Part shown: in pieces, positions 39,636 to 52,426 of the stretch
Layout of the letters: every line of letters begins with the position of its first letter
Numbering within the stretch: the first letter of the stretch is position 1
The notes under the pieces: generated by a model
What the model was told of the DNA's origin: nothing
The model's database searches: none
Seen by the model: only the letters and a program-made list of their open reading frames with translations
Source of the DNA: an uncultured Actinomycetes bacterium
Lineage (GTDB): Bacteria; Actinomycetota; Thermoleophilia; RBG-16-64-13
Assembly: GCA_963841735.1 (NCBI GenBank)
Contig: CAWJDT010000001.1
Coordinates: forward strand, 768,001-832,000
DNA: 64,000 nt
Direction: 5' to 3'
Translations under genes and position numbers: made by a program

Positions 39636-40997
39636 CTACGCGCCCCCGGTGTCCTCCTTGCGGAGGTCGACCACTCGCTGAGCTTTGCCCTCGCTGCGCT
39701 CGATGGAGCCAGGTTCCTTGAAGGTCACCTTGGTATTGATGCCGATGATGTCCTTGATGTTCTTCTGGATGTCGCCCTTGAGAGCCACCAGAACATCGTG
39801 TTCGGTGAATGTCGTGACGTCGTCAAGAGAGAGCATGGCCTCCGAGACCTCTTTGTGGAGGCTGGGTTTGATCTCCACCTGCACTTCCATGTTGTCCATG
39901 GCGCCCTTGCGGGTGACGATGAGACGGTAGTGAGGCTCCACCTGGGGCGACATCAACAGCACCGACTCAACCTGGCTGGGGAACACGTTGACTCCGCGGA
40001 TGATGAGCATGTCGTCGGTGCGGCCCGAGACGCGGGCCATGCGCACGGTGGTGCGTCCGCAGATGCAGGGCTCGGGGTTCAGAGTGGTGATGTCGCCCGT
40101 GCGGTAGCGGATAAGGGGGAAGGCTTCCTTGGTGAGGGTGGTGAACACCAACTCGCCCTGCTGCCCGTAGGGAAGCACCTCGCCGGTGTCCGGGCTGATG
40201 ATCTCGGGGAGGAAGTGGTCTTCGTTGATATGCAGGCCGGACTGGGCCTCCACGCACTCACACGAAACGCCGGGGCCCACGATCTCGCTCAGACCGTAGA
40301 TGTCGCAGGCTTTGATGTTCCACTTGGCCTCGATGTCCCTGCGCATGGCTTCCGACCAGGGTTCGGCTCCGAACACCCCTACCTTGAGCGGCAGTTTGGT
40401 GACATCCATGCCCACCTGCTGGGCCACGTCCCATAGGTAGATGGCGAAGCTGGGAGTGCAACAGATGACAGTGGTGCCGAAGTCCTGCATGAGCATGAGT
40501 TGCCGCTGGGTGTTGCTGCCCGAGATAGGGATGACCGACGCGCCCAGTGTCTCAGCTCCGTAGTGCATGCCCAGGCCGCCCGTGAAGAGGCCGTAGCCGT
40601 AGGCCACCTGGACGACGTCCTCGTCGGAGGCGCCGACGCCGGCCAGCGTGCGGGCCGCGACGTGGGCCCACATGTCGATGTCGTTCTGGGTGTAGCCAAC
40701 AGTTGTCGGCTTGCCTGTGGTGCCTGACGAAGCGTGGATGCGCACCACTTCTTTGAGCGGGGTGGCGAACATCTTGAACGGGTAGTTGTCGCGCAGGTTG
40801 TACTTGCGGGTGAAGGGGAGACGGGTGAGGTCGTCCAGCCCGCGGACGGATTCGGGGGCGATTCCGGCCTTATCGAGCAGGTCTCGATAGAAGGGCACCT
40901 TGTCGTAGACCCTCTTTACCAGGGCGCTCAGGCGCTCGCCCTGCAGCTGCCTCATGTCGTCCCGGCTCATGCACTCGTGTTCACGGTCGAAGATCAC
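39636..40997 (-). CDS. paaK: phenylacetate-CoA ligase
   Basis: [42 protein letters not shown]. Confidence 0.92.
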
Positions 40998-41072
40998 GGT
41001 TGACTCCCCTTATACTCGCGCACCCTACCGGGCGATGGTAGCACGGGACCGGAGTCTCACTCACTGTGACTA

Positions 41073-41514
41073 CCGGCTCAGGCCGGTGCCTGCCGACTCG
41101 GCACTCGCCGGGGTTGCCCTTTGCTTCGCTCGGGCGGCAAAAGCCTCGCTGGCAGACACCGACCTGAGCCGGCACCCTCCGCCCAGCGGCGCCGGTCCCG
41201 CGCTTCCCGCGCGGTAGATGGTTTTCGGTGAGGGGTGCCTGCCGACTCGGCACTCGCCGGGGTTGCCCTTTGCTTCGCTCGGGCGGCAAAAGCCTCGCTG
41301 GCAGACACCGACCTGAGCCGGCACCCTCCGCCCAGCGCGCCAGTCCCGTGCTTCCAGCACGGTAGATGGTTTTCGGTGAGGGGTGCCTGCCGACTCGGCA
41401 CTCGCCGGGGTTGCCCTTTGCTTCGCTCGGGCGGCAAAAGCCTCGCTGGCAGACACCGACCTGAGCCGGCACCCTCCGCCCAGCGGCGCCGGTCCCGCGC
41501 TTCCCGCATGGTAG
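41073..41514. repeat. ~2.9 tandem copies of a 148-149-bp GC-rich structured repeat
   Basis: Unit starts GGTGCCTGCCGACTCGG at 41085, 41234 and 41382; the first copy is bounded by a 20/22 inverted repeat (41073-41094 / 41151-41172). Confidence 0.95.
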
Positions 41515-41609
41515 CTGTTCTCTCTGAGGGGGCTTCTCCGCACACGCGGCTGCTTGTCAACCCAAGGTCTGATTACAGGGCGACGTCTATTCGTGTGACC
41601 CTGGCGACG

Positions 41610-42575
41610 ATGGACACGCCGCCAAGACTGCTCGATCAAATGCGCGAGGCACTACATGCGCGGCACTACAGCCTCCGCACAGAACGGGCCTACTGCGCCT
41701 GGGTGAGGCGCTTCATCTACTTCCACCACGTCCGCCATCCAGGTGAGATGGGGGGCCCGGAGATCAACGCCTTTCTCACTCACCTCGCGGTGGCGGAGAA
41801 CGTGAGCGCTTCGACGCAGAACCAGGCGCTGGCGGCGCTGCTCTTCCTGTACCGGCACGTACTAGACCGCGAAGTGGGCGACTTGGACGGAGTAATCCGT
41901 GCCAGGCACAGTGCCAAGGTCCCGGTGGTGATGACTCGCACCGAAGTGCGGGAGGTGCTTGCTCAACTCGCGGGCGACAAGTGGCTCATCGCCTCTCTAC
42001 TCTATGGCTGCGGGCTGCGACTACTGGAGTGCCTCCGGCTCCGGGTCAAGGACATCGACTTCTCCCGGGGCGAGATCACAGTGCACGATGGCAAGGGCGG
42101 GAAGGATCGTGTCACCATGTTGCCCGCGTCACTTGCCGATCCGTTGCAGCATCACCTTGTCTCGGTCAAGACGATCCACCAGGCCGATCTGGCCGACGGC
42201 TGGGGTCGCGTGCTCCTTCCTAACGCTCTTGATCGGAAGTACCCGAACGTGCCGGCCGACTGGCGCTGGCAGTGGGTCTTTCCCCAGGCCAACCGCTGGA
42301 AGAACAGCAGAACTGGGGAGGAAGGGCGGCATCATGTTCACGAGACCCTTGTTCAGCGCGCGGTGAAGGAGGCCGTAAGTCGCGCCGGTGTTGTCAAGCA
42401 CGTGGGGTGCCACACCTTCCGACACTCCTTCGCTACTCATCTCCTGGACGCGGGTTACGACATCCGCACGATCCAGGAACTCCTGGGCCACAAGGACGTT
42501 CGCACCACCATGATCTACACCCATGTGCTCAACCGCGGCGGCCAGGGCGTCCGCAGCCCGCTTGACTCCCTGTAG
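41610..42575 (+). CDS. intI: integron integrase (tyrosine recombinase)
   Basis: [32 protein letters not shown], IntI-specific insertion [54 protein letters not shown]; ATG 41610 gives 321 aa. Confidence 0.97.
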
Positions 42576-42677
42576 GGCGGGCATATACAGATGGGATGAG
42601 AAGGCCGACCTCCCCCGGAGTACCGTGAGGTCCCCAATCAGAGTCGGGCTCGTGGGCCCAAATGAAGGAGGCCAGCC

Positions 42678-43760
42678 ATGTGCGATGCTAGCACCACCGA
42701 GCAAGCGAAGGTGACCGTGGGTCTCGATCTGAGCGACCGTTGTTGTCAGATCTGTGTGCTCGACGAAGCGGGCGAGGTGACCGAGGAGGGCCGGGTGACG
42801 ACCAAGCCGGAAGCCTTGCGTCGCCGCTTCTCCGGGGCGGATCCGCTACGCATCGTGATCGAGGCCGGCACCCACTCCCCCTGGGTTAGCCGTCTGCTTT
42901 CCGAACTTGGACACGACGTTGTCGTGGCCAATCCCCGCAAGCTCCGCTTCATCTACCAGAACGACTCGAAGTCAGACCGGGTGGACGCCGAGTACCTGGC
43001 CCGGGTCGGTCGTCTGGACCCGGAGCTGCTGGCCCCCCTCACCCATCGGAGAGCCGAGACCCAGTCCGACCTCGCGCTTGTGCGCAGTCGCAATGCCCTG
43101 GTCAGGGCTCGCACCCGTCTGATCAGTCATGCCCGCGGCTGCACGAAGTCCTTGGGCAGCCGCCTGCCCACCTGCGCGAGCGACGTCTTTGCCCAAAAGG
43201 CCGGGCCGTGTGTCCCCGAGGAGCTTGCTCCCGCCCTGGCTCCGGTCCTCACCGTCATCCAGAACATCTCCGATGAGATCCGCGCTCTCGATCAGAAGAT
43301 CGAAGACATGGCCAAGGAGCGCTACCCAGAGACCGCGCTTCTCTCCCAGGTGCCCGGCGTGGGCACGCTTACGGCCACAGTCTATGTCCTTACCGTGGAA
43401 GATCCCGAGCGCTTCCCCAAGTGCCGCTCGGTGGGCTCGTATCTCGGCCTCAGGCCCCGGCAGGCAAGCTCCGGTTCCCTGGAGCCTCAGCTGCGCATCA
43501 CCAAAGCCGGGGACGAGCACCTGCGCTGGCTCCTCGTGAGCGCCGCCCACTACATCCTCGGGCCCTTCGGCCCGGACTCGGATCTCAGGCGTTGGGGTCT
43601 TGCCTTGGCCGCGCAGGGCGGCAAGCGGGGCAAGAAGCGAGCGGTAGTGGCGGTGGCCCGCAAGCTCTCGGTGCTCCTCCTGCACCTCTGGAGGACCGGT
43701 GAGGTCTACGAGCCACTGCGCAACGTCCGGCTCCGCGGCGAGACTGCGCCCACCACCTAG
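42678..43760 (+). CDS. IS110-family DEDD transposase/recombinase
   Basis: VGLDLS, IEAGTHS, KSDRVDA (DEDD), YLGLRPRQASSG (Ser), AVVAVARKL. Confidence 0.95.
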   Translation: MCDASTTEQAKVTVGLDLSDRCCQICVLDEAGEVTEEGRVTTKPEALRRRFSGADPLRIVIEAGTHSPWVSRLLSELGHDVVVANPRKLRFIYQNDSKSDRVDAEYLARVGRLDPELLAPLTHRRAETQSDLALVRSRNALVRARTRLISHARGCTKSLGSRLPTCASDVFAQKAGPCVPEELAPALAPVLTVIQNISDEIRALDQKIEDMAKERYPETALLSQVPGVGTLTATVYVLTVEDPERFPKCRSVGSYLGLRPRQASSGSLEPQLRITKAGDEHLRWLLVSAAHYILGPFGPDSDLRRWGLALAAQGGKRGKKRAVVAVARKLSVLLLHLWRTGEVYEPLRNVRLRGETAPTT

Positions 43761-43866
43761 GAGCGGTGAAGATGAGAGATGCCGACGGGAAGGATCGATA
43801 ACCAAGGAAGACCGGCGGGTGAACCCATCGCAGGAGACCAGCAAAAAGACCAACCGCCCAGGGTGA

Positions 43867-44027
43867 AAGCGACTGCGCACACAGACTCGGCCGTACAGAA
43901 CGACACCAACCCGGTGCCGTCCCCAAGGCCGCTATACAGATAGCAGCGCTTCCCCCCGGCCGGACCCCAACGTGCACCGGGTCCCGCCATAGGTTCCCGA
44001 CAAAAAGTGCGAATGGAAGCGTGGCCG
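43867..44027 (+). ncRNA. putative bridge/seek RNA of IS #1
   Basis: Stem-flanked internal loop GCACACAGACT / CTATACAGATA matches the target flanks; second loop ATGGAAG matches the IS right end. Confidence 0.7.
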
Positions 44028-44137
44028 TGGTCTTGGCTCTTCGCGGCGGAAGAGGGATGATAGAAACCGAGCAGAGGAGGAAGAAGCAACCCAAGAATCG
44101 CTCTTGACACCGGCCGGCTTCTCATGGAAGTCTGCAT

Positions 44138-44168
44138 AACCCCAAGACCGCGCGGGCGTCTTGGGTTC
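44138..44168 (+). terminator. hairpin, possibly the original intI terminator before IS insertion
   Basis: CCCAAGAC...GTCTTGGG stem followed by TT; lies just past the intI stop in the reconstructed empty site. Confidence 0.35.
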
Positions 44169-44221
44169 AGAAACCGCTCGGTATGCCGACCAGGGGGGCT
44201 GTCTTGAGAATCGCAGCCGGA

Positions 44222-44284
44222 GTTATGCAGACAACCTGGTGCTGCGACGGTTGAGTTGGGCAGACTGGATAAGCATTGTTAGAC
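44222..44284 (+). other. putative attI site
   Basis: R box GTTAGAC (44278-44284) is complementary to attC1 R'' GTCTAAC; upstream imperfect direct repeats GTTATGCAGAC (44222) and GTTGGGCAGAC (44255); no attC-like hairpin directly upstream. Confidence 0.7.
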
Positions 44285-44311
44285 ACAGACGCTGGGAGGC
44301 GCGCGGCGCGA

Positions 44312-45121
44312 ATGTCGTGGATGAGCGACAGCGGCACCGAGTACAGACTGTGCTTGCTCGACACAAACGCCTTGAGCAACATCGTCGAGCATCGCGACAC
44401 CTTTGGGCACGCTTTCATCGAGCGGTTTCCCCCAAGTGATTGGGCGCCATGCTGGACAATCTACAACGTCATCGAATTGCGTCGTGCCCCAGAGCATCTA
44501 CGACTATACGATGCCTGGCTCGACTTCTTCTCAAGGTATCCGAGCTTCCTTCTTGAGCCATATTCGCGCATCGTGGCGGCAGAGGTGGCGGCCTATCACC
44601 ACTATCCAGCTGGACCTCCGTTGCTCAACGCCTTCACTCTGGCTGGGTCCGAAGACAGGCACTTCCTGCGGCCGTTCCTAGAGAAGCTCTTTGTGCAGGA
44701 CTGGATGATCGAGCTTGAGGCCGGGTGGCGCGACGATGAGAATGACACCCTCCGGGAGTGGGTCTCACGTTCGAACGACGGTCGCAAAGCTGACCAGTAC
44801 GTCGCCGAGTCAGTGGTTGTTCACTTGGCCGAGAATCACCAATCTTGGACGGCGGGACTCCTGAACTCGGGTAGCACACTGGACATAAACCGATTCCCTG
44901 CGCTGCAGGCTATGCTGTATTCGCAGTTCTATCGTATTCGTGAGCCGGGGCGGGTTCATGAGGCAAGCGACGTTACGGACGTTCGGATCATGGCGGCGGC
45001 GCCCTATATGGAGGCGGTTGTCACGGAGAGGTTCCAGGCAGAGGTCTTTCGCAAGGCAAAGAGAGCGCTTTCGTCGATAGCACAGCTTGATGTCGTGAGG
45101 GTTGGTGAGTTGTGTGGCTGA
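44312..45121 (+). CDS. cassette 1: PIN-like domain protein
   Basis: CLLDTNALS at N-terminus, E in YNVIELRR, SDVTDVRIMAAAPY...VVTE at C-terminus; lower GC; stop codon just before attC1. Confidence 0.6.
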   Translation: MSWMSDSGTEYRLCLLDTNALSNIVEHRDTFGHAFIERFPPSDWAPCWTIYNVIELRRAPEHLRLYDAWLDFFSRYPSFLLEPYSRIVAAEVAAYHHYPAGPPLLNAFTLAGSEDRHFLRPFLEKLFVQDWMIELEAGWRDDENDTLREWVSRSNDGRKADQYVAESVVVHLAENHQSWTAGLLNSGSTLDINRFPALQAMLYSQFYRIREPGRVHEASDVTDVRIMAAAPYMEAVVTERFQAEVFRKAKRALSSIAQLDVVRVGELCG

Positions 45122-45129
45122 CGCTTCGT

Positions 45130-45220
45130 GTCTAACAAGTGCGTGCAACCGACACCGGCGTTGTCTGCTGCATGGAGTACCATGGCCAACGGGCGCGGCT
45201 GACGCACTAGAACGTTAGCG
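45130..45220 (+). other. attC1 recombination site (intact)
   Basis: R'' GTCTAAC, GTGCGT(G)CAACCG / CGGCTGACGCAC arms with an extrahelical base, R' GTTAGCG. Confidence 0.92.
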
Positions 45221-45255
45221 TTACAAGGGAGAGTGGGGTTCTGGTGGGGGGTCGA

Positions 45256-46323
45256 ATGATCAAGCCGAAGTCGTACATCGTAGGGTTGGGTCTGTTGCTG
45301 ACCTTGGGGGCGGCAGTCGACGGTTGCTCAGGGCGTTCCTCCGATCAAGTCACTTTCGAGAGCGAATACGTTTCTCTGCAACTGCCCGACTCGTTCGTCG
45401 GAGGCGATCCAGCGGATCCGAATGTGATGGCCGCGCTCAAGAAGCATGCCGAGAAGAACCCTGATTCCGAGACCCGTGCCGACCTCAAGTCGTACCTGGA
45501 CGGACTAGAGAGTGACATCCGAAGGGACGAGGAGTACCACTTCGTAAGGAATGGCCCTCTTCTTCTCCTCTGGGGTGAGCCGGATAAGGACGGCTCCATG
45601 GCGGAGGTCTACGTGTCGCGCGTTCTCGTGCAGAACATACTCCCGCTGACCGACGGTGACTCCTCAATGGAAGCCCTCGTGAAGGGTTTGAACTTCTGGC
45701 CAGAGTCAGAGTGGTACATCGATAATCTCACCGCTGATGCTGCGGAGGTGTTGCTCTACCATGTCAAAGAGAGTCCCGACGACATGACGGTGCGCGAACA
45801 TCATGTGTTCAAGGCCACGGCTGAGTATGTCTACGAGTTCACCTACGTCTACTACGACGAGATTTCGGCAGACCTGGACTCTGTCTTCGCCTCAAGTGCC
45901 GACACTGCTACCGTCAAGTGGCCCTACAACTCACAGAAGCAGTCTGTGGACCAGAAGGCCTACCGGCAGGATGGGGACTGCGAGTCTCTCGTCGAGAAGG
46001 CAAAGTACGCTCTAGAAAAGGCATACAAGGAACTGGGGACATGCGACCCCGGGGTGGTGACACCCAAGGTACTGAGCGAGATCGAGCCGGGTGTTGTCTT
46101 CATCGTCGTCGAGGACGCTGAAGCTGCACTTGCACCCGAAGCTGCAACCGTGCGGAATGAGGTCGCCTACTGGGGCGATGCTGGGACCTATACGGTTGGT
46201 TCGTGCTCCGAGTCTGGCAAGACGTACGGCGTATTCCATGATATGGCGGACCCTGGATGGTATCGAGTTTCCGAAGGCGGTCAGCCGGGCTCCAGGAGAT
46301 ATGAGATACCGACAGACAAGTAG
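45256..46323 (+). CDS. cassette 2: exported/lipoprotein with pilin-like C-terminal domain
   Basis: Hydrophobic N-terminus ending AVDGC; cassette ends GTTAGCGTT (45214) and AACGCTAAC (46343-46351) are perfectly complementary. Confidence 0.65.
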   Translation: MIKPKSYIVGLGLLLTLGAAVDGCSGRSSDQVTFESEYVSLQLPDSFVGGDPADPNVMAALKKHAEKNPDSETRADLKSYLDGLESDIRRDEEYHFVRNGPLLLLWGEPDKDGSMAEVYVSRVLVQNILPLTDGDSSMEALVKGLNFWPESEWYIDNLTADAAEVLLYHVKESPDDMTVREHHVFKATAEYVYEFTYVYYDEISADLDSVFASSADTATVKWPYNSQKQSVDQKAYRQDGDCESLVEKAKYALEKAYKELGTCDPGVVTPKVLSEIEPGVVFIVVEDAEAALAPEAATVRNEVAYWGDAGTYTVGSCSESGKTYGVFHDMADPGWYRVSEGGQPGSRRYEIPTDK

Positions 46324-46422
46324 CCGCCCGAAAGTGAGACTGAACGCTAACAAGATGGCATGAAAAGGACGCTGCGCCGACACTGTCGTTGTGAGGAGCA
46401 ACGATAGGAAGGAGAAGCGCCG

Positions 46423-47415
46423 ATGCCAACTTACTACCTGGGCCTCGATGTCCACAAGGTCCGCACCCAGTACTGTCTGATGGATCTGGGCGGTGAGATC
46501 CTATCCGAGGGCAATGTCCCCACCGAAGAAGCCGCGTCTCTGGTGTCCGAGATCGATTCTGCCGTGGTGCTGGAGGCCACAGGCAGCTGGCACGCCACCT
46601 ACGACGCGCTCGTCGCCACCGGAGCCGCTGTCAAGCTGGCACACCCCGCCCGCATCAAGGCCATCGCCTCCGCTAAGGTCAAGACCGACAAGATCGACGC
46701 CCGCATCCTGGCGCATCTGTTGCGTGCTGATCTCATCCCCGAGGCCTGGGCACCTCCCACTTCAGTGCGGGAACTTAGGGACCTGGTGCGGCTTCGTTGG
46801 CGCTTCATCTCCCAGCGCACCACTGCCAAGAACCGCATCACCAACCTGCTGGCCCGCGAGAACCTGCGCTTCGCCGGCACCGATCTGTTCGGCAAGAGTG
46901 GCAGGAAGTGGCTGGAGGCGCTGGATCTGCGGGCACACACCCGGAGTCTCATCGCCTTGCTGCTCGTCTCCATCGAGGAGGCCGATGCCCACGTGGCCGT
47001 TCTCACCTCTCGACTGCATGAGCTGCTCGACCGGGACCCGGACATGGGTCTGCTCATGACCATACCCGGTGTGGGTTTCATCACCGCGGCCACGCTCTCC
47101 GCCGAGGTCGGTGACTGGAGCCGCTTCTCCTCGGCAAGGCAGGTCTCCTGCTACTTCGGCATCATCCCCTCGGTGCGGAGTTCAGGTACTGTGGCCCACT
47201 ACGGACACATCACGCGGGCCGGGAGTCCTCACGCAAGGCGAGCGCTCGTCGAGGCGGCGCACACCGCCAAGAAATTGCCGGGGCCGGTCCGCCACCACTA
47301 CCTCGCTCTAGTCAAGCGTCGCGGCAAGAAGGTCGCCCTCGTCGCCGCAGCCCGTGTGCTGCTGGAACTGTCCTGGACCCTCCTGCACAAGAAGGAGGTG
47401 TTTCAGGCGGCTTAA
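46423..47415 (+). CDS. IS110-family DEDD transposase/recombinase
   Basis: LGLDVHK, LEATG, KTDKIDA, YFGIIPSVRSSG, ALVAAARVLL. Confidence 0.95.
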   Translation: MPTYYLGLDVHKVRTQYCLMDLGGEILSEGNVPTEEAASLVSEIDSAVVLEATGSWHATYDALVATGAAVKLAHPARIKAIASAKVKTDKIDARILAHLLRADLIPEAWAPPTSVRELRDLVRLRWRFISQRTTAKNRITNLLARENLRFAGTDLFGKSGRKWLEALDLRAHTRSLIALLLVSIEEADAHVAVLTSRLHELLDRDPDMGLLMTIPGVGFITAATLSAEVGDWSRFSSARQVSCYFGIIPSVRSSGTVAHYGHITRAGSPHARRALVEAAHTAKKLPGPVRHHYLALVKRRGKKVALVAAARVLLELSWTLLHKKEVFQAA

Positions 47416-47536
47416 GAGGAGAGCCCGTTGCACGCGCTGGGAGCGTGTTCGACTCCCGTTAACAAGATTCGGCCTCCTCACCGCCGCATAGCCCATCTGA
47501 GCGCCTGGATAGATGAGCGCGAATGGAAGCTTGGCC
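47416..47536 (+). ncRNA. putative bridge/seek RNA of IS #2 with attC-specific guides
   Basis: Internal loop GTTGCACGCGCT / TAACAAGAT matches both strands of the attC target; second loop CCATCT / ATGGAAG matches the circle junction. Confidence 0.8.
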
Positions 47537-47736
47537 CTCGAAGCCGTTGATGGTGGAAGGCGCGCGTTCGGGGACGGTAGAATCAAGAGCGTGCGAAGCT
47601 CAAGATGAAGACTTGCACTCTGAGTCCTTTTCATGGAAGTGCGTGCAACCGACATCCTTCATTGTCTATCGCATGGAGTACCATGGCCAACGGGCGCGGC
47701 TGACGCGCTAGAACGTTAGCCATACAGGGGGTTCTA

Positions 47737-48470
47737 TTGGACCGAGCTAGGGCGGTTGATCTGTACCTTCAGTGTTGTGGCTTGCAGAATGATCTCGAAC
47801 CGAAGCCCGTGGTCGCCAAGTACACGGAGTTTCTCGACGAAGCAGTTGCCCAGTTGTCGATCAATGACTTCGCAATCAACTCCAAGCAGCATCTGCGGGA
47901 CATAGCCAACTTCGTCAATGAGTTCGCTTTCAACCACCAGAGGCTGCGTGCTTGGGAACGGATACTGCCTGATCTGAGCGACCAGGAACGGCTCGATGTC
48001 CTGATCGAATTCGTCGACCCAATCGTCTATCTCTGCATGGGAGCTCCCGCCGCGTTGAAGGGGCGCCTTCACTTCTCGATGAGGTCACTTCTCTCTTGGC
48101 GAACGAACATCGTGTCCCAGGCTGGACTTACTCTCCGCCGCCTGCGCACTCCACGTTTGAGGGCGCTCGTTCTCAGGCCCGGCTTTGGGATAGCTGGCCA
48201 AGATTGCGGGATTGCCTAGGGGTGCTCAACAACCATGATTTCAAGAGGCGCGTATACGAGTTCAGGGATCACTTCGAACATGGGAGTCCTCGGCTGGTAG
48301 AGTTCGGTGAGAAACTAATGGCGTGGAGAGATGCGCATGGTCGTGTTCTGGGCGTCGAACCAGCCATTTCGCTGGCGAGTGTCGTAGAGTCGCTAGGTCC
48401 GCAGCAGTCGGCCTCAGTTGCTGCCTATGATGCATACGTCGCTTTGGTGGAGGAACAGCATTCGGCGATC
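47737..48470 (+). pseudogene. cassette 3: frameshifted, 3'-truncated protein with an RxxxxH (HEPN-like) motif
   Basis: Starts right after attC2 R'; frames 47737-48219 and 48096 onward join near 48080; FRDHFEH motif; no attC follows. Confidence 0.6.
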
Positions 48471-48732
48471 CTACAAGAGCCAGATCGAGGGCGACGGTAT
48501 CGCGGCTGCCTATGTCGCCCAGAAGGAAGCCATCGGCCAGCAGAATGTGGCGGTGATCAAGCTCATGCAGGAGATAGCAGCCGGCAATATCCAAATCGTG
48601 CCCCAGGTCCTGGTGGGCGGCGAGGGCTCAGCGAGCGGCAACCTGTTCAATGCCTGGCTGTCTCAGATGATCTCTCAGAACGTGCCGAAGACCGAGGCAG
48701 ACAAGAAGGCGGAGAAGAAGGCTGCTGGGTGA
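48469..48732 (+). pseudogene. 3' remnant of an SPFH/flotillin-like gene
   Basis: GIAAAYVAQKEAIGQQNVAVIKLMQEIAAGNIQIVPQVLVGGEG resembles flotillin-family C-termini; host-like GC3; no own start. Confidence 0.6.
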
Positions 48733-48744
48733 TCTGAGGGCTTG

Positions 48745-49431
48745 TCATACCCTGAACGCCGACGGACAAGCATCGGCCAGCAGGCACTCACCGCAGCGGG
48801 GGCGCTTGGCGTCGCAGACCGCCCGGCCGTGTTCTATCAACAGGTAGGTCAGGCGGAACCAGTCTTCTCTCGGGACGATCTCCATCAGCTCGCGCTCGAC
48901 CTTCTCGGAGTCGTGCGACGTGGCTAGGCCCAGTCTTTGGCTTAGGCGGTTGACGTGGGTGTCTACCGCTATGCCTGCGTCCGGGTCTGACGCGTACGCT
49001 TCGGGATGGGCGTTGCCCAGCACTACATTGGCCGTCTTGCGCGCCACTCCCGGCAGGGTCAGCAGGCCGGTCATGCTCGCGGGGATGTCTCCGCCGTAGT
49101 CGGCCAGGATCTTATGGGCGGCACCGATGATGTGCTTCGTCTTGTTTCTGAAGAAGCCTGTGGGCCTGATGTCGGCCTCGAACTCCACCGGGTCGGCACC
49201 GGCGTACGCCTCTACGGTGCGGTACTTCTTGAATAGCTTGGCGGTGACTTGGTTGACCATCTTGTCTGTACACTGGGCCGAGAGGATGACGGCCACCAGT
49301 AGTTCCCAGCCGTTGCCGAAGTCGAGCACTATCCCTGCGCTGGGGTATTCAGCCTTCAGGCGTGCGAGTATTTCCAACGCGTACGCGCGCTTGCCCGCCG
49401 ACGGAGTGCTCTGGACTACCTTCTTCACCAT
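48745..49431 (-). CDS. nth: endonuclease III
   Basis: LLVAVILSAQCTD, LPGVARKTANVVL HhH, VDTHV, CxxxxxxCxxCxxxxxC. Confidence 0.95.
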   Translation of the reverse strand: MVKKVVQSTPSAGKRAYALEILARLKAEYPSAGIVLDFGNGWELLVAVILSAQCTDKMVNQVTAKLFKKYRTVEAYAGADPVEFEADIRPTGFFRNKTKHIIGAAHKILADYGGDIPASMTGLLTLPGVARKTANVVLGNAHPEAYASDPDAGIAVDTHVNRLSQRLGLATSHDSEKVERELMEIVPREDWFRLTYLLIEHGRAVCDAKRPRCGECLLADACPSAFRV

Positions 49432-49536
49432 GGTCCTCGATCGTGTTTGTACTAGGCTTGTTCGTAATACGCCTTTTTCATCATACGATATCCTTGCAGC
49501 CGTCGACTTCTGCGTGAGGGCGGTAGAATCGTCACT

Positions 49537-50166
49537 ATGAGAGAAGCGCTGACAGCACAAGAAGCGGCCGCGGGGGCCTGCGTTCCGGCGCCGGGCGCGC
49601 GGCGGCTGGTGGTGGGCATCTCTGGGGCATCTGGGAGTGTCTTTGGCATTCGGCTGCTTGAGGTGCTCCGCGACACTCCCATCGAGACCCATCTGATTCT
49701 TAGCGAAGCCGCCCGGCGGGTAATCGCACTCGAGACCGAGCAGACCTCGGAGCAGGTGGAGGCTCTGGCGGACTATCACTACGGCTATGCGGACATCGAC
49801 GCCGCCATCGCCTCGGGGTCGTTTCACACCATGGGTATGGTTGTGGCCCCCTGCTCCATCAAGAGCCTGGCGGCTGTTGCCGGCTGCCACGCCAACACAC
49901 TTCTGGCGCGGGCCGCGGATGTGACTCTTAAAGAGCGGCGCAAGCTGGTGTTGGTGGTGCGCGAGACCCCGCTGCACCTCGGTCACCTGCGGTTGATGTC
50001 GGCGGTGACGGAGTACGGCGCCGTGGTGCTGCCTCCCGTCCCGGCCTTTTACCACAAGCCCCGCACCATCGCAGACCTGGTAGACCAAACGGTGGGCAAG
50101 ATCCTCGATCAGTTCGGCGTGGAAAGAGGGCTTTTTGAGCGCTGGCGGGGTGTGGATGGGGTCTGA
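49537..50166 (+). CDS. ubiX: flavin prenyltransferase
   Basis: GISGASG, IASGSF, PCSIKSL, RAADVTLKERRKL, RETP, PAFYHKP. Confidence 0.95.
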   Translation: MREALTAQEAAAGACVPAPGARRLVVGISGASGSVFGIRLLEVLRDTPIETHLILSEAARRVIALETEQTSEQVEALADYHYGYADIDAAIASGSFHTMGMVVAPCSIKSLAAVAGCHANTLLARAADVTLKERRKLVLVVRETPLHLGHLRLMSAVTEYGAVVLPPVPAFYHKPRTIADLVDQTVGKILDQFGVERGLFERWRGVDGV

Positions 50167-50641
50167 GGAGAGCGCTGAACTGCGCATCCAAGTTGCCGAC
50201 TATCTGTGCGCGCACCACACGATGACCATCGCGACTGCCGGGGAGGAGGGGAACGCTCCCCATGCGGCCAGCGTTTTCTACGCCGCGGATGACGCGCTTC
50301 GCCTGGTGTTTCTGAGCAAGGCCGACAGCGTGCACGGGCTGCACATCGGAGCCGCGGCGCCGGTGGCGGTCACCGTGACAGAGCAGTACGACGACTGGGA
50401 GAAGATCCAGGGTGTGCAGCTCTGGGGCAAAGCTCACTTGCTGACGGGGACGGCCAGGGCGGGGGCCTTCATGGTCTACCTGAGGCGCTTTCCCTTTGTG
50501 CGCGACCTGCTCCGCCACCCGCGGCACGCTGAGACCCTTCGGCACATCGGGGTGTACCGGGTGGAGCCGGAGCGGGCGGCATTCACCGACAACTCGGCCG
50601 GCGTCTTCGGTCGTAAGATGCTCGATCTGATGGGAGAATGA
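50156..50641 (+). CDS. pyridoxamine 5'-phosphate oxidase-like (YhbP-like) protein
   Basis: MTIAT...PHAASVFY, S.H, IQGVQLWG, FTDNS..FG.K. Confidence 0.8.
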   Translation: MGSEESAELRIQVADYLCAHHTMTIATAGEEGNAPHAASVFYAADDALRLVFLSKADSVHGLHIGAAAPVAVTVTEQYDDWEKIQGVQLWGKAHLLTGTARAGAFMVYLRRFPFVRDLLRHPRHAETLRHIGVYRVEPERAAFTDNSAGVFGRKMLDLMGE

Positions 50642-50647
50642 TCGTTC

Positions 50648-52426
50648 GTGGAAGTGAGACAGTTCGACAGACGTAGCCTCGGACAGCGGCGGCGGGAGCG
50701 CCGCCGTCGCGTTGTTATGCGGTGGCTCGTTCTCCTGGCCTGTGTTGTTATCGTCCTGCTGGTCGTCCTTATTGCCGGGCGTAGCTGCGGAGATGGTGCG
50801 GGCGGAGGCGGTCAGTCCGGAAACACCACCGAGTTCACCACCACCACTCTCCCCGCCGTCAACATGACGGTGGCCCCCGCCGCCGACACCACCCCGGCGG
50901 CTTTTGACCTAAGCACCGGCACGTATGTAAACGGGGAGAAGGTAACCTCCTACACCCGGCCCGACCCCATCGACTTCGGAGCGGGCGAGGACTACACCAG
51001 CCTAGAAGGTGTCATCACCTTCAGGGGCAACAACTACCGAGAAGGCGCCAGCTACGGCACCCCCAATGTCACCTTGGGCAAACTGACCCTGGAGTGGAGC
51101 ATCCCTTCAGGCAGCATAACCAAGGGCGGAGGAACCGGCTCCTGGACCGGCTCGGGCTGGACCGGGCAACCACTCATCGTCAAATGGCCCGAGGCCACCA
51201 AGCAGATCATGAACCTGAAGGATGCCAAGAAGGCCGACCCGAACCTCGTCGAGGTGATCTACCCTTGTCTAGACGGCCGCATCTACTTTCTGGATCTGGC
51301 CGACGGCAGCGCCACCCGCCCCGTCCTTGAAAGCGGCGGCGGCCCCTTCAAGGGCACCGGCAGCATTTATCCCGACGGCACCCCCATGCTCTTTGTGGGT
51401 CACGGAGATGACTCTCCGAACAAAGAAGTGGTGCGGGCCCGCCTCTATAGCCTCATCGATCAGAAGCTCCTCTACAGCTTCGGCAAGAAACCCGATGCCC
51501 TGTCGTTCAGGGCTTGGCACGCTTATGACTCAAGCGCCCTATTTGACGTGGGATCGGACACTTTGATCGAGCCGGGCGAGAACGGCGTCCTCTACACCAT
51601 CAAACTCAATACCAAGTACGACCCCGTCGCCGGCACCTTATCCGTAGACCCCGAGGAGCCCGTTAAACTGCGCTATACCGCTCCCAACTACAGCGTGAGC
51701 GGCGATAACTCCCCCGACCACCGCTGGTGGGGCATGGAAGACTCCGCTGTCATCTGGCGCAACTACCTCTATGTCAGCGATAACGGTGGCAAGCTCATGT
51801 GCTTCGATCTGAACACCATGAAGATGATCTGGGCCCAAGACGTGCTCGACGACACCAACTCCACGCCCATATTTGAAGAATCTCGGGAAGACGGCACCTG
51901 CTACATCTACATCTCCACCTCGCTGCACATCACCGCCACAGGTAACTCGTCGCGCACGGGCGGCATCCCTATCTGGAAGATAGACGCGGCCACCGGTGAG
52001 ATCGTGTGGCAGACGCCCGACTACCCCTGCTACACCATAAGCGGCGTTTCCGGAGGGGTGGAGGCCACCCCAGTCTTGGGTAAGAACGATATCTCCAATC
52101 TGGTGATCTACCCCATCGCCCGCACACCGGGCGCCAACTCCGGGATCCTGGTGGCCCTTGACAAGGCGACCGGAGAAGAGGTCTGGAAGATGCCCATGAC
52201 CAACTACGCCTGGAGTTCACCGATTGCCATCTACACGCCGGCGGGCAAGAGTTACATAGTGCAGTGTGACTCGGTGGGCACCATGTTCCTAATCGAAGGC
52301 ACCACCGGAACCATAGTAGACACGCTTGATCTAGGGACCAACGTCGAGGCTTCCCCCGCTGCCTACGGCAACATGATCGTGGTGGGTACTCGGGGCGAGA
52401 AGATCTGCGGAGTGAGCATCAAGTAG
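50648..52426 (+). CDS. membrane-anchored PQQ-binding-like beta-propeller protein
   Basis: N-terminal TM helix, TFRGNNYR, WTGSGWTGQP, repeated A.D..TGE..W motifs, EASPA. Confidence 0.8.
   Translation: MEVRQFDRRSLGQRRRERRRRVVMRWLVLLACVVIVLLVVLIAGRSCGDGAGGGGQSGNTTEFTTTTLPAVNMTVAPAADTTPAAFDLSTGTYVNGEKVTSYTRPDPIDFGAGEDYTSLEGVITFRGNNYREGASYGTPNVTLGKLTLEWSIPSGSITKGGGTGSWTGSGWTGQPLIVKWPEATKQIMNLKDAKKADPNLVEVIYPCLDGRIYFLDLADGSATRPVLESGGGPFKGTGSIYPDGTPMLFVGHGDDSPNKEVVRARLYSLIDQKLLYSFGKKPDALSFRAWHAYDSSALFDVGSDTLIEPGENGVLYTIKLNTKYDPVAGTLSVDPEEPVKLRYTAPNYSVSGDNSPDHRWWGMEDSAVIWRNYLYVSDNGGKLMCFDLNTMKMIWAQDVLDDTNSTPIFEESREDGTCYIYISTSLHITATGNSSRTGGIPIWKIDAATGEIVWQTPDYPCYTISGVSGGVEATPVLGKNDISNLVIYPIARTPGANSGILVALDKATGEEVWKMPMTNYAWSSPIAIYTPAGKSYIVQCDSVGTMFLIEGTTGTIVDTLDLGTNVEASPAAYGNMIVVGTRGEKICGVSIK

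Follow-up and report, generated by a model that had tools for sequence, protein, structure and literature searches.

An attC-inserted IS1111 element of an Actinomycetes-labelled genus with a predicted guide RNA for target and donor

How does an insertion sequence (IS) come to lie, base for base, at one end of an attC site of an integron? This question is raised by a stretch of 64,000 nucleotides (the window) from an uncultured Actinomycetes bacterium (GenBank assembly GCA_963841735.1, contig CAWJDT010000001.1, positions 768,001 to 832,000 of the forward strand), in which an IS1111-type element, here called element 1, splits an attC site (attC2) downstream of the integron integrase gene intI. 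RNA-guided targeting by IS110/IS1111 elements was published in 2024 (PMC11187229, PMC11208160). A preliminary description of the window, made from its letters alone, had proposed that element 1 is a naturally attC-programmed bridge recombinase. This proposal is supported by complementarity and by the way in which the guides of related elements covary with their flanks and ends, and element 1 is very probably an attC-inserted IS1111 element with a guide RNA (seekRNA or bridge RNA) that is predicted to read both target and donor. The anatomy of the element, the complementarity and the covariation with flanks and ends are direct observations. All coordinates and strings given for element 1 in the preliminary description were reproduced base for base, and the features are collected in Table 1.

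The two attC copies of the window, each of about 90 nt, separate cassette-like open reading frames (ORFs), and attC1 is 90% identical over 69 nt to the right part of attC2 (family D2). The flanks of element 1 read ..GCTAACAAG|IS|TGCGTGCAAC.., and its removal restores an attC like attC1, as had been claimed: left and right flank together make exactly the 18-mer of the intact attC1, without target-site duplication. This empty site, CTAACAAGTGCGTGCAAC (CTAACAAG+TGCGTGCAAC), has one match with 0 mismatches in the window, at 45132-45149; in shuffled sequence, matches with up to 3 mismatches average 0.03. The site in attC1 is indeed a vacant target of identical sequence. A second exact vacant target exists elsewhere in the genome (C5:148980), together with further near-matches. 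Only the core AG (AAG) is common to the flank and the IS end, and the left junction TAACAAG|AT occupies 46348-46356. The terminal sequences of the element are ATGGCATGAAAAGGAC and GTCCTTTTCATGGAAG; its subterminal inverted repeats, CATGAAAAGGAC (46359-46370) and GTCCTTTTCATG (47624-47635), match at 12 of 12 positions and leave 4 nt outside each. Joining of the ends predicts a circle junction ..CATGGAAG|ATGGCATG.., in which the abutted ends read ..ATGGA-AG-ATGG... These ends recur in 17 relatives, with both or one end found.

Table 1. Positions of the two IS1111-type elements, the predicted RNA parts and the integron features in the window
Feature	Position	Strand	Remarks
Element 1	46355..47639	+	IS1111-type insertion sequence, 1285 bp; ends and subterminal repeats read from sequence
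DEDD transposase (RNA-guided recombinase) gene of element 1	46423..47415	+	330 aa, intact; Pfam and NCBIfam matches
Predicted target-binding stem-loop of seekRNA/bridge RNA	47416..47479	+	single-sequence fold, consensus fold, pair counts
Predicted right-target guide GTTGCACGCGCT	47427..47438	+	complementary to top strand AG-TGCGTGCAAC: 11 Watson-Crick pairs and 1 G:T; score 11.5/12
Predicted left-target guide TAACAAG + AT	47460..47468	+	TAACAAG (47460-47466) = left flank + core, pairs with bottom strand
Predicted donor-binding loop	47483..47535	+	closing stem 47483-47486/47532-47535; hairpin 47501-47505/47515-47520
Element 2	42591..44130	+	transposase gene 42678-43760; seekRNA-like region 43865-44034; Pfam and NCBIfam matches
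Integron integrase gene intI	41628..42575 (TIGR02249-matching part; open frame from 41235)	+	profile match
attC1, intact vacant target	45130..45219	+	R'' GTCTAAC 45130-45136; R' GTTAGC 45214-45219; insertion point 45139/45140
attC2, left part	46345..46354	+	R'' box GCTAAC + AAG = left target + core AG
attC2, right part	47640..47721	+	right target TGCGTGCAAC through to R' GTTAGC

IS1111 elements have been defined by inverted repeats of about 11-13 bp in subterminal position, beyond which a short extension follows at each end, and separated from IS110 proper by a long region 3' of the transposase gene, a transposase of 330-350 aa and the motif G--P----S/TG (PMC11187229). Element 1 has 224 nt of non-coding sequence 3' of the transposase gene against 68 nt on its 5' side, and because of this long 3' region, the subterminal repeats and the lack of a target duplication we assign it, from its sequence, to the IS1111 branch of the IS110 family, of which it is an intact member. 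The transposase is matched by PF01548 (E 8.2e-20; N-terminal DEDD, RuvC-like), by PF02371 (E 4.1e-24; C-terminal) and by NF033542, 'IS110 family RNA-guided transposase', which scores 249.9 bits (cut-off 140) and aligns over positions 1-342 of its 343. The catalytic residues of IS621 are D11, E60, D102, D105 and S241 (PMC11208158). In a phmmer alignment to the IS621 transposase (8wt6) the motifs EATG, KTDxxDAR and SG are conserved; the region of the first Asp falls outside this alignment, and GLDVH stands near the N-terminus. The sequence GIIPSVRSSG fits the IS1111 motif. A protein search of PLSDB with this transposase gave closest matches of about 40% identity at most, all 4712 matching records lying below 60% and those on enterobacterial plasmids at 24-30%, and no row was recognised as ISKpn4, ISPst6 or ISPa21.

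The predicted guide RNA begins directly 3' of the transposase stop codon. An outer stem (47416-47425/47471-47479) and an inner stem GGGAG/CTCCC (47439-47443/47453-47457, inner hairpin 47439-47457) enclose an internal loop, and the arrangement of the two stems and the loop, given in the preliminary description, is reproduced when 47416-47560 is folded alone. It is also found by comparison. Relatives were taken from protein-guided scans, the best 80 of 226 on genome contigs and the best 80 of 463 on metagenome contigs, and 21 of these 160 scanned loci are close relatives with a transposase identity of 65-92%. Two alignments, A2 and A3, hold 16 distinct 3' regions; L085 and L086 were left out (the former repeats the locus of L084, the latter its RNA), L094, L095 and L101 end before the 3' region, and L027 is without the right end. 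The last of these (65% transposase identity; region from about 2640 onward) keeps both RNA loops, its usual right end is absent within 400 nt, and its 3' part appears to be replaced or truncated. The consensus fold of the 16 aligned relatives keeps both the outer and the inner stem of the target loop, with both guide strands in the internal loop between them. Standard pairs fill 94.4% of the pair cells, a share that falls to 30-50% if the partners are shifted by 1-3 columns, and five pairs change on both sides. At two pairs of the inner stem GC has become AU on both sides, in 7 and 5 of the 16 sequences, and compensatory GC-to-AU changes are also seen at the base of the outer stem.

In the internal loop of element 1, the segment complementary to the top strand stands 5' of the segment complementary to the bottom strand, which is the order reported for seekRNAs of the IS1111 family (PMC11187229), and the AT that follows TAACAAG in the second segment equals the first two bases of the element. 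In relatives, too, this 9-mer is seen where left flank and left end meet. By our own arithmetic, a match of 11 of 12 positions to a given 12-mer would arise by chance in the 224-nt region with a frequency of about 5e-4, and an exact 9-mer with about 8e-4. Further evidence comes from the relatives, and it concerns the right side of the target: the left guide, held to the conserved R'' box, has no room to covary. The left flanks of all 21 close relatives read ..CTAACAAG or a one-base variant of it (L003 CTGACAAG, L082 CTAGCAAG, L101 CTAACCAG), in one orientation throughout, and the 3' loop strand GTTAACAAGA is constant as well. The 5' loop strand varies together with the right flank, in agreement with the target-loop reading of the preliminary description. 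The guide of element 1 pairs with its right flank as given in Table 1; in L082 both have changed in a compensatory way relative to the window, and the guide GCTGCACGCGCT matches the flank CGCGTGCAGC at 12/12. Guide and flank are AAGCACGCGCT and CGCGTGCTT in L002 (11/11), and GCAACGGCT and CCGTTGC in L004 (9/9). L088 and L096 differ in one guide base (GATCCGCT/GATGCGCT) and in the matching flank base too (CGGATC/CGCATC). There are three clean compensatory cases of right guide against right flank. A permutation test was made on 15 insertion events, excluding L083 for its right flank of 8 nt and not including L096, which was found later. With the core excluded, cognate combinations scored 6.77 on average and non-cognate ones 5.20, and none of 20000 permutations came up to the cognate mean. 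For 9 of the 15 guides no flank scored above the cognate one, and at least 8 contiguous pairs occur in 11 of 16 events. To the eye, a guide split 8+4 around a bulge of 1-2 nt is conceivable in the L003 and L087 types. Among distant relatives, L112 has a wholly different target, and its guide matches that target at 10/10 in the equivalent position of the loop.

The second loop of the RNA is likely a donor guide, less securely so than the first is a target guide. Its strands are CCATCT on the 5' side (47493-47498) and ATGGAAG on the 3' side (47523-47529). The IS ends are invariant among the 16 relatives of the close clade, and because they never vary there is no donor covariation to test within it. 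A covariance model built on A3 found the same architecture in distant relatives, directly after the transposase gene in ten elements at 35-43% transposase identity (L102, L107, L099, L110, L112, L115, L156, L151, L125 and L021); in a search of the whole genome with E up to 1, element 1 was the sole match. The 7-mer of the donor 3' strand has a single exact recurrence downstream, where it forms the final 7 nt of the right end beside the subterminal repeat; this is so in 17 of 18 close matches (the truncated L027 being the other) and in 9 of the 11 distant matches that carry a 7-mer in the loop. The two distant exceptions are L021, which is cut off, and L160, which has no recurrence and whose match lies upstream of its transposase gene; a twelfth distant match, L042, is on the minus strand and has no 7-mer of the form AT...... 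Four forms of the 7-mer exist, ATGGAAG and, in distant relatives, ATAGATG, ATAAGAG and ATAGGAG, and shuffled 7-mers recur in 0-19 of 200 trials. The donor 5' strand in turn is complementary to bases 1-5 of the left end (UCCAU/ATGGA, ACCAU/ATGGT, GCCAU/ATGGC, GGUAU/ATACC), with the window type, L112 and L099 as exceptions. Loop strands of distant relatives thus change together with the IS termini, as expected from the donor-loop reading that had been proposed.

The preliminary description had further compared the AT that follows TAACAAG with the handshake positions of IS621, where extra bases beside a guide match the partner DNA (PMC11208158). One half of this comparison stands. The A is present in every relative with the GA[TC]T motif; of 18 close relatives, 8 have T in the second position and 10 have C. 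Every left end nevertheless starts with ATGG, so that no covariation of these bases can be tested on the target side. In the donor loop, the 1-2 bases after the core vary with the right flank from class to class: they are C beside flanks that begin with C, UU in L102, L107 and L099, and AA in L156, with misses in L151, L125, the window, L091 and L092. One possibility is that these junction bases act as handshake guides like those of IS621. Another is that through them the RNA recognises both junctions of the integrated element during excision; excision of IS1111 elements depends on flanks derived from the target (PMC11187229).

Transcription of the RNA is weakly hinted at by a 246-nt contig from a metatranscriptome library (X6, record 24, 5 differences), which spans 47301-47545 and thus part of the transposase gene, its stop codon and both loops; other contigs of such libraries cover parts of the transposase gene. 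The shares of window words in the sequencing runs are 0.15 or less. A scan of 46200-47800 for promoters and terminators detected no terminator and, on the minus strand, two promoter-like sites, a result uninformative about the RNA. In run X1, one relative is represented by a DNA contig in which 47417 is followed by 17 other letters and then by 47662, so that this contig is without the whole non-coding region and the right end.

Several observations weigh against an RNA that guides element 1 to attC. The contigs from RNA libraries come from relatives and may derive from DNA, and they show neither ends nor strand, which is why they give no stronger hint of transcription. The fold that returned the stems as described has an energy no better than that of shuffled sequences (z 0.20 for 47416-47560; z 0.70 for 47410-47645). 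Folding energy was dropped as evidence for this lack of signal, and the support for the structure rests on the comparison of relatives. Rfam contains nothing that matches 40000-52000 with an E-value of 1 or less; no curated family therefore covers this RNA. For 6 of the 15 guides a non-cognate flank scored higher than the cognate one, and the cognate excess is possibly inflated by kinship among the IS elements and among the attC sites. Short runs of contiguous pairs occur in L083 (5), L093 (3) and L103 (3, with 10/12 overall), and the window's own guide has its G:T at the first base after the core. The same guides are also found at different right flanks (L084/L086 and L091/L093, 3-8 contiguous pairs), and L084 and L086, identical copies of one IS, have 7 and 4 contiguous pairs. 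The preliminary description had named unchanged loops at changed targets as what would speak against it; this is seen in these two pairs, while in several other lineages the guide follows the flank. The right-side matching is, from these sequences, tolerant rather than strict, because identical guides occur at different right flanks. We read this to mean that the left guide and the core carry most of the specificity and that the right guide would add a tolerant preference. The same tolerance, the constancy of the left flank at the conserved R'' box in all close relatives, and the fact that attC sites are structured DNA (for the bottom strand of attC1 the fold has -22.8 kcal/mol, z -3.81, which none of 200 shuffles equalled) are what could be expected if targeting were due to the protein or to the folded attC, with the non-coding matches incidental or hitch-hiking. 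We consider this very improbable, since the right guide follows the right flank in several lineages down to single compensatory substitutions (L082 against the window, L088 against L096), distant relatives with other targets carry matching sequences at the same loop positions (as in L112), and experiments on ISEc11, ISKpn4 and ISPst6 found the RNA to be required and programmable (PMC11187229).

The donor side calls for a separate judgement. In element 1 the donor 5' strand reads CCCAU against a left end ATGGC, a miss at position 5, and the L003 type reads CCATCG, with one core base lost, both of which also count against the proposed reading. In the RNAalifold consensus of the 16 close relatives, CCAU (columns 91-94) forms a helix with AUGG (columns 129-132 of A2; 130-133 of A3), and these four pairs never vary in a clade whose ends do not vary either. 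The first loop could accordingly be a real target guide and the second a structural CCAU/AUGG helix, with the ends recognised by the protein through the subterminal repeats; moreover, an 82-nt seekRNA sufficed for movement of ISEc11 (PMC11187229). Self-pairing was rejected as the main explanation because the loop strands of distant relatives cannot form the helix (CCAU/AUAAGAG; GGUAUC/AUAGAUG), yet each matches its own IS end, the matching ends cover four right-end and four left-end variants, and donor-binding nucleotides have been placed in multi-loops of IS1111 bridge RNAs by Durrant et al. (PMC11208160). We therefore hold a purely structural second loop to be unlikely. It is also conceivable, and on balance doubtful, that the guide design is real and that element 1 is well preserved and immobile at present in this genome. 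Here the evidence is the copy number: the element occurs once in the whole genome (8 contigs, 2.82 Mb, 89.7% complete) despite two exact vacant targets and the near-matches, whereas element 2 has five copies. The guide of element 1 also has one wobble against its own site. From the single copy it may be inactive, or it may be a recent arrival. On the other side, the ORF of element 1 is intact, as are its two ends, its two loops and those catalytic motifs that the IS621 alignment covers; relatives with a transposase identity of 86-92% occupy other attC sites, which indicates recent mobility of the clade; and further copies could be missing from an incomplete genome.

The preferred reading, an attC-programmed element with two guide loops, would then work as follows. 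The DEDD recombinase would be directed by the seekRNA or bridge RNA encoded directly after its stop codon. In the target loop, the 5' strand would pair with the top strand, that is, with the core AG and the right half of the target in the variable part of attC, and the 3' strand with the bottom strand of the left half and the core, the conserved R'' box TAAC-AAG. The second loop would read the abutted IS ends in the same geometry as the target loop. Insertion would take place at the R'' end of attC, between AAG and the next base, in one orientation and without target duplication, and would split attC sites of the chromosomal integrons of the genus. That the RNA is made, is bound by the transposase and directs excision and insertion is inferred by analogy with the experiments on ISEc11, ISKpn4, ISPst6 and IS621.

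The surroundings of element 1 are those of an integron, with an intI of the integron-integrase subfamily and attC sites with R'' and R' boxes, the bottom strand of the intact attC1 folding well. TIGR02249 matches ORF residues 132-446 with 484.5 bits (cut-off 265) over profile positions 1-315 of 315, and PF00589 and PF13495 match the gene as well. Cassette-like ORFs, none of which has a Pfam or NCBIfam match, follow downstream on the same strand, so that the array lies 3' of intI (window 41628-48200). A tandem repeat at 41085-41514 (148-nt unit, 2.9 copies, 96% matches) is upstream of intI and overlaps the 5' extension of its frame. In a genome of the same genus (G012:C10:7775-8797), a 69%-identical homologue of the cassette ORF 45244-46323 is followed by an uninterrupted attC. 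Genomes of this genus contain long arrays of the attC family of the window, with dozens of matches 0.3-1 kb apart (G001:C2:82657-100172 with more than 20 matches, G002:C8, G012:C4 and C10, and C1 and C2 of G013, the genome that by its coordinates holds L002). Judged from these arrays, there are sizeable chromosomal integrons in this Actinomycetes-labelled genus, and therefore many potential targets for elements of this type; integrons in Actinobacteriota have already been recorded (PMC8618304). Identical or nearly identical IS copies sit in neighbouring attC sites of one array in several cases: L084 and L086 are about 5.6 kb apart on one metagenome contig, L088 is found at 143-1445 and from 2197 onward, and L096 at 770 and 1434.

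Element 2, the second IS1111-type element, lies 15 nt downstream of the stop codon of intI, where it interrupts ..CATATACAG|TCTGCATAAC.. (TCTG..). Its transposase is 33% identical to that of element 1, and the covariance model matches it weakly, with 15.5 bits in a local search, which is below the threshold of E 1 in the whole-genome search. Five copies are present in the genome, all at the same site beside intI or its remnants; the other four are at C1:402135-403854, C1:1356004-1357737, C5:149829-151567 and C6:29989-31571, and an unoccupied site is seen in L175 around 1655-1665 on the minus strand. The predicted loop strands match the left junction TATACAGAT at 9/9 and the core plus right flank over 6-7 nt, so that element 2 looks as if programmed for the region next to intI, on the attI side. 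Elsewhere in the genome there is another intI of full length, besides two or more fragments of the gene (C6:31559-32503, C5:151587-151751, C1:392114-392191). Each of them is flanked by a copy of element 2 or by its vacant site, and the genome therefore contains several integron platforms or remnants of platforms.

The finding is not new in kind, because attC-targeting IS1111 seekRNAs are already published and bridge RNAs of IS1111 elements had been predicted. An IS1111-attC group reportedly goes back to Tetu & Holmes 2008 and Post & Hall 2009. What appears new, from the sequences compared here, is a divergent clade from a genus labelled Actinomycetes, whose chromosomal integrons are large, together with a second IS1111-type element that probably targets the site beside intI. 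We suggest, tentatively and with somewhat less than even confidence, that this clade is an attC specialist of separate origin from the proteobacterial IS1111-attC elements, with a left guide hard-wired to the R'' box and a right guide that drifts or is reprogrammed and tolerates mismatches, and that with element 2 it forms a guild partitioning actinobacterial chromosomal integrons. If so, one attC-specialist IS could colonise many attC sites of an array. The finding also indicates that RNA-guided IS elements shape chromosomal integrons outside Proteobacteria. Splitting of attC by element 1 should lock neighbouring cassettes together, and element 2 sits between intI and the cassette array. The relatives also form a clean natural series of about a dozen IS1111 elements, each beside its own target, in which one guide is constant and the other varies; the series holds both single compensatory substitutions and clear tolerated mismatches. 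It can help to establish the number of paired bases required on either side by an IS1111 seekRNA, and it bears on whether the donor loop and the junction-spanning bases matter in the IS1111 branch.

How does element 1 compare with known systems? Closest in habit are ISKpn4 and ISPst6, whose attC-targeting seekRNAs were purified with their transposases, and ISPa25, whose seekRNA was predicted (Siddiquee et al. 2024; PMC11187229). Like element 1, they belong to the IS1111 family, insert at one end of attC and have a seekRNA region 3' of the transposase gene, in which a segment complementary to the top strand is followed by one complementary to the bottom strand (PMC11187229). They differ in their setting, which is proteobacterial or clinical integrons, whereas element 1 belongs to an Actinomycetes-labelled genus with chromosomal integrons; the comparison is based on published descriptions. 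ISEc11 and ISXne4, for which seekRNA reprogramming in nature and by engineering is on record, show the same pattern as the present clade, in that the stems are kept while the target-matching bases of the loop change with the target (PMC11187229), as they do here in the window, L082, L002, L004 and L088. Their targets are short and linear, whereas one half of the target of element 1 is fixed in the R'' box of attC and the other half is variable. IS621 has a DEDD and Ser recombinase and an RNA with two internal loops that read both strands of target and donor (PMC11208160, PMC11208158), as predicted for element 1, and its core of 2 nt is CT, which in element 1 is AG on the other strand. However, the RNA of IS621 is encoded in the left end, 5' of the transposase gene, and IS621 is without long subterminal repeats, whereas the predicted RNA of element 1 lies 3' of the gene, and the strand-specific order of the guides is reversed between the two. 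In element 1 the extra bases extend the guides that read the bottom strand, and the relatives support this for the A in the target loop and for 1-2 bases in the donor loop.

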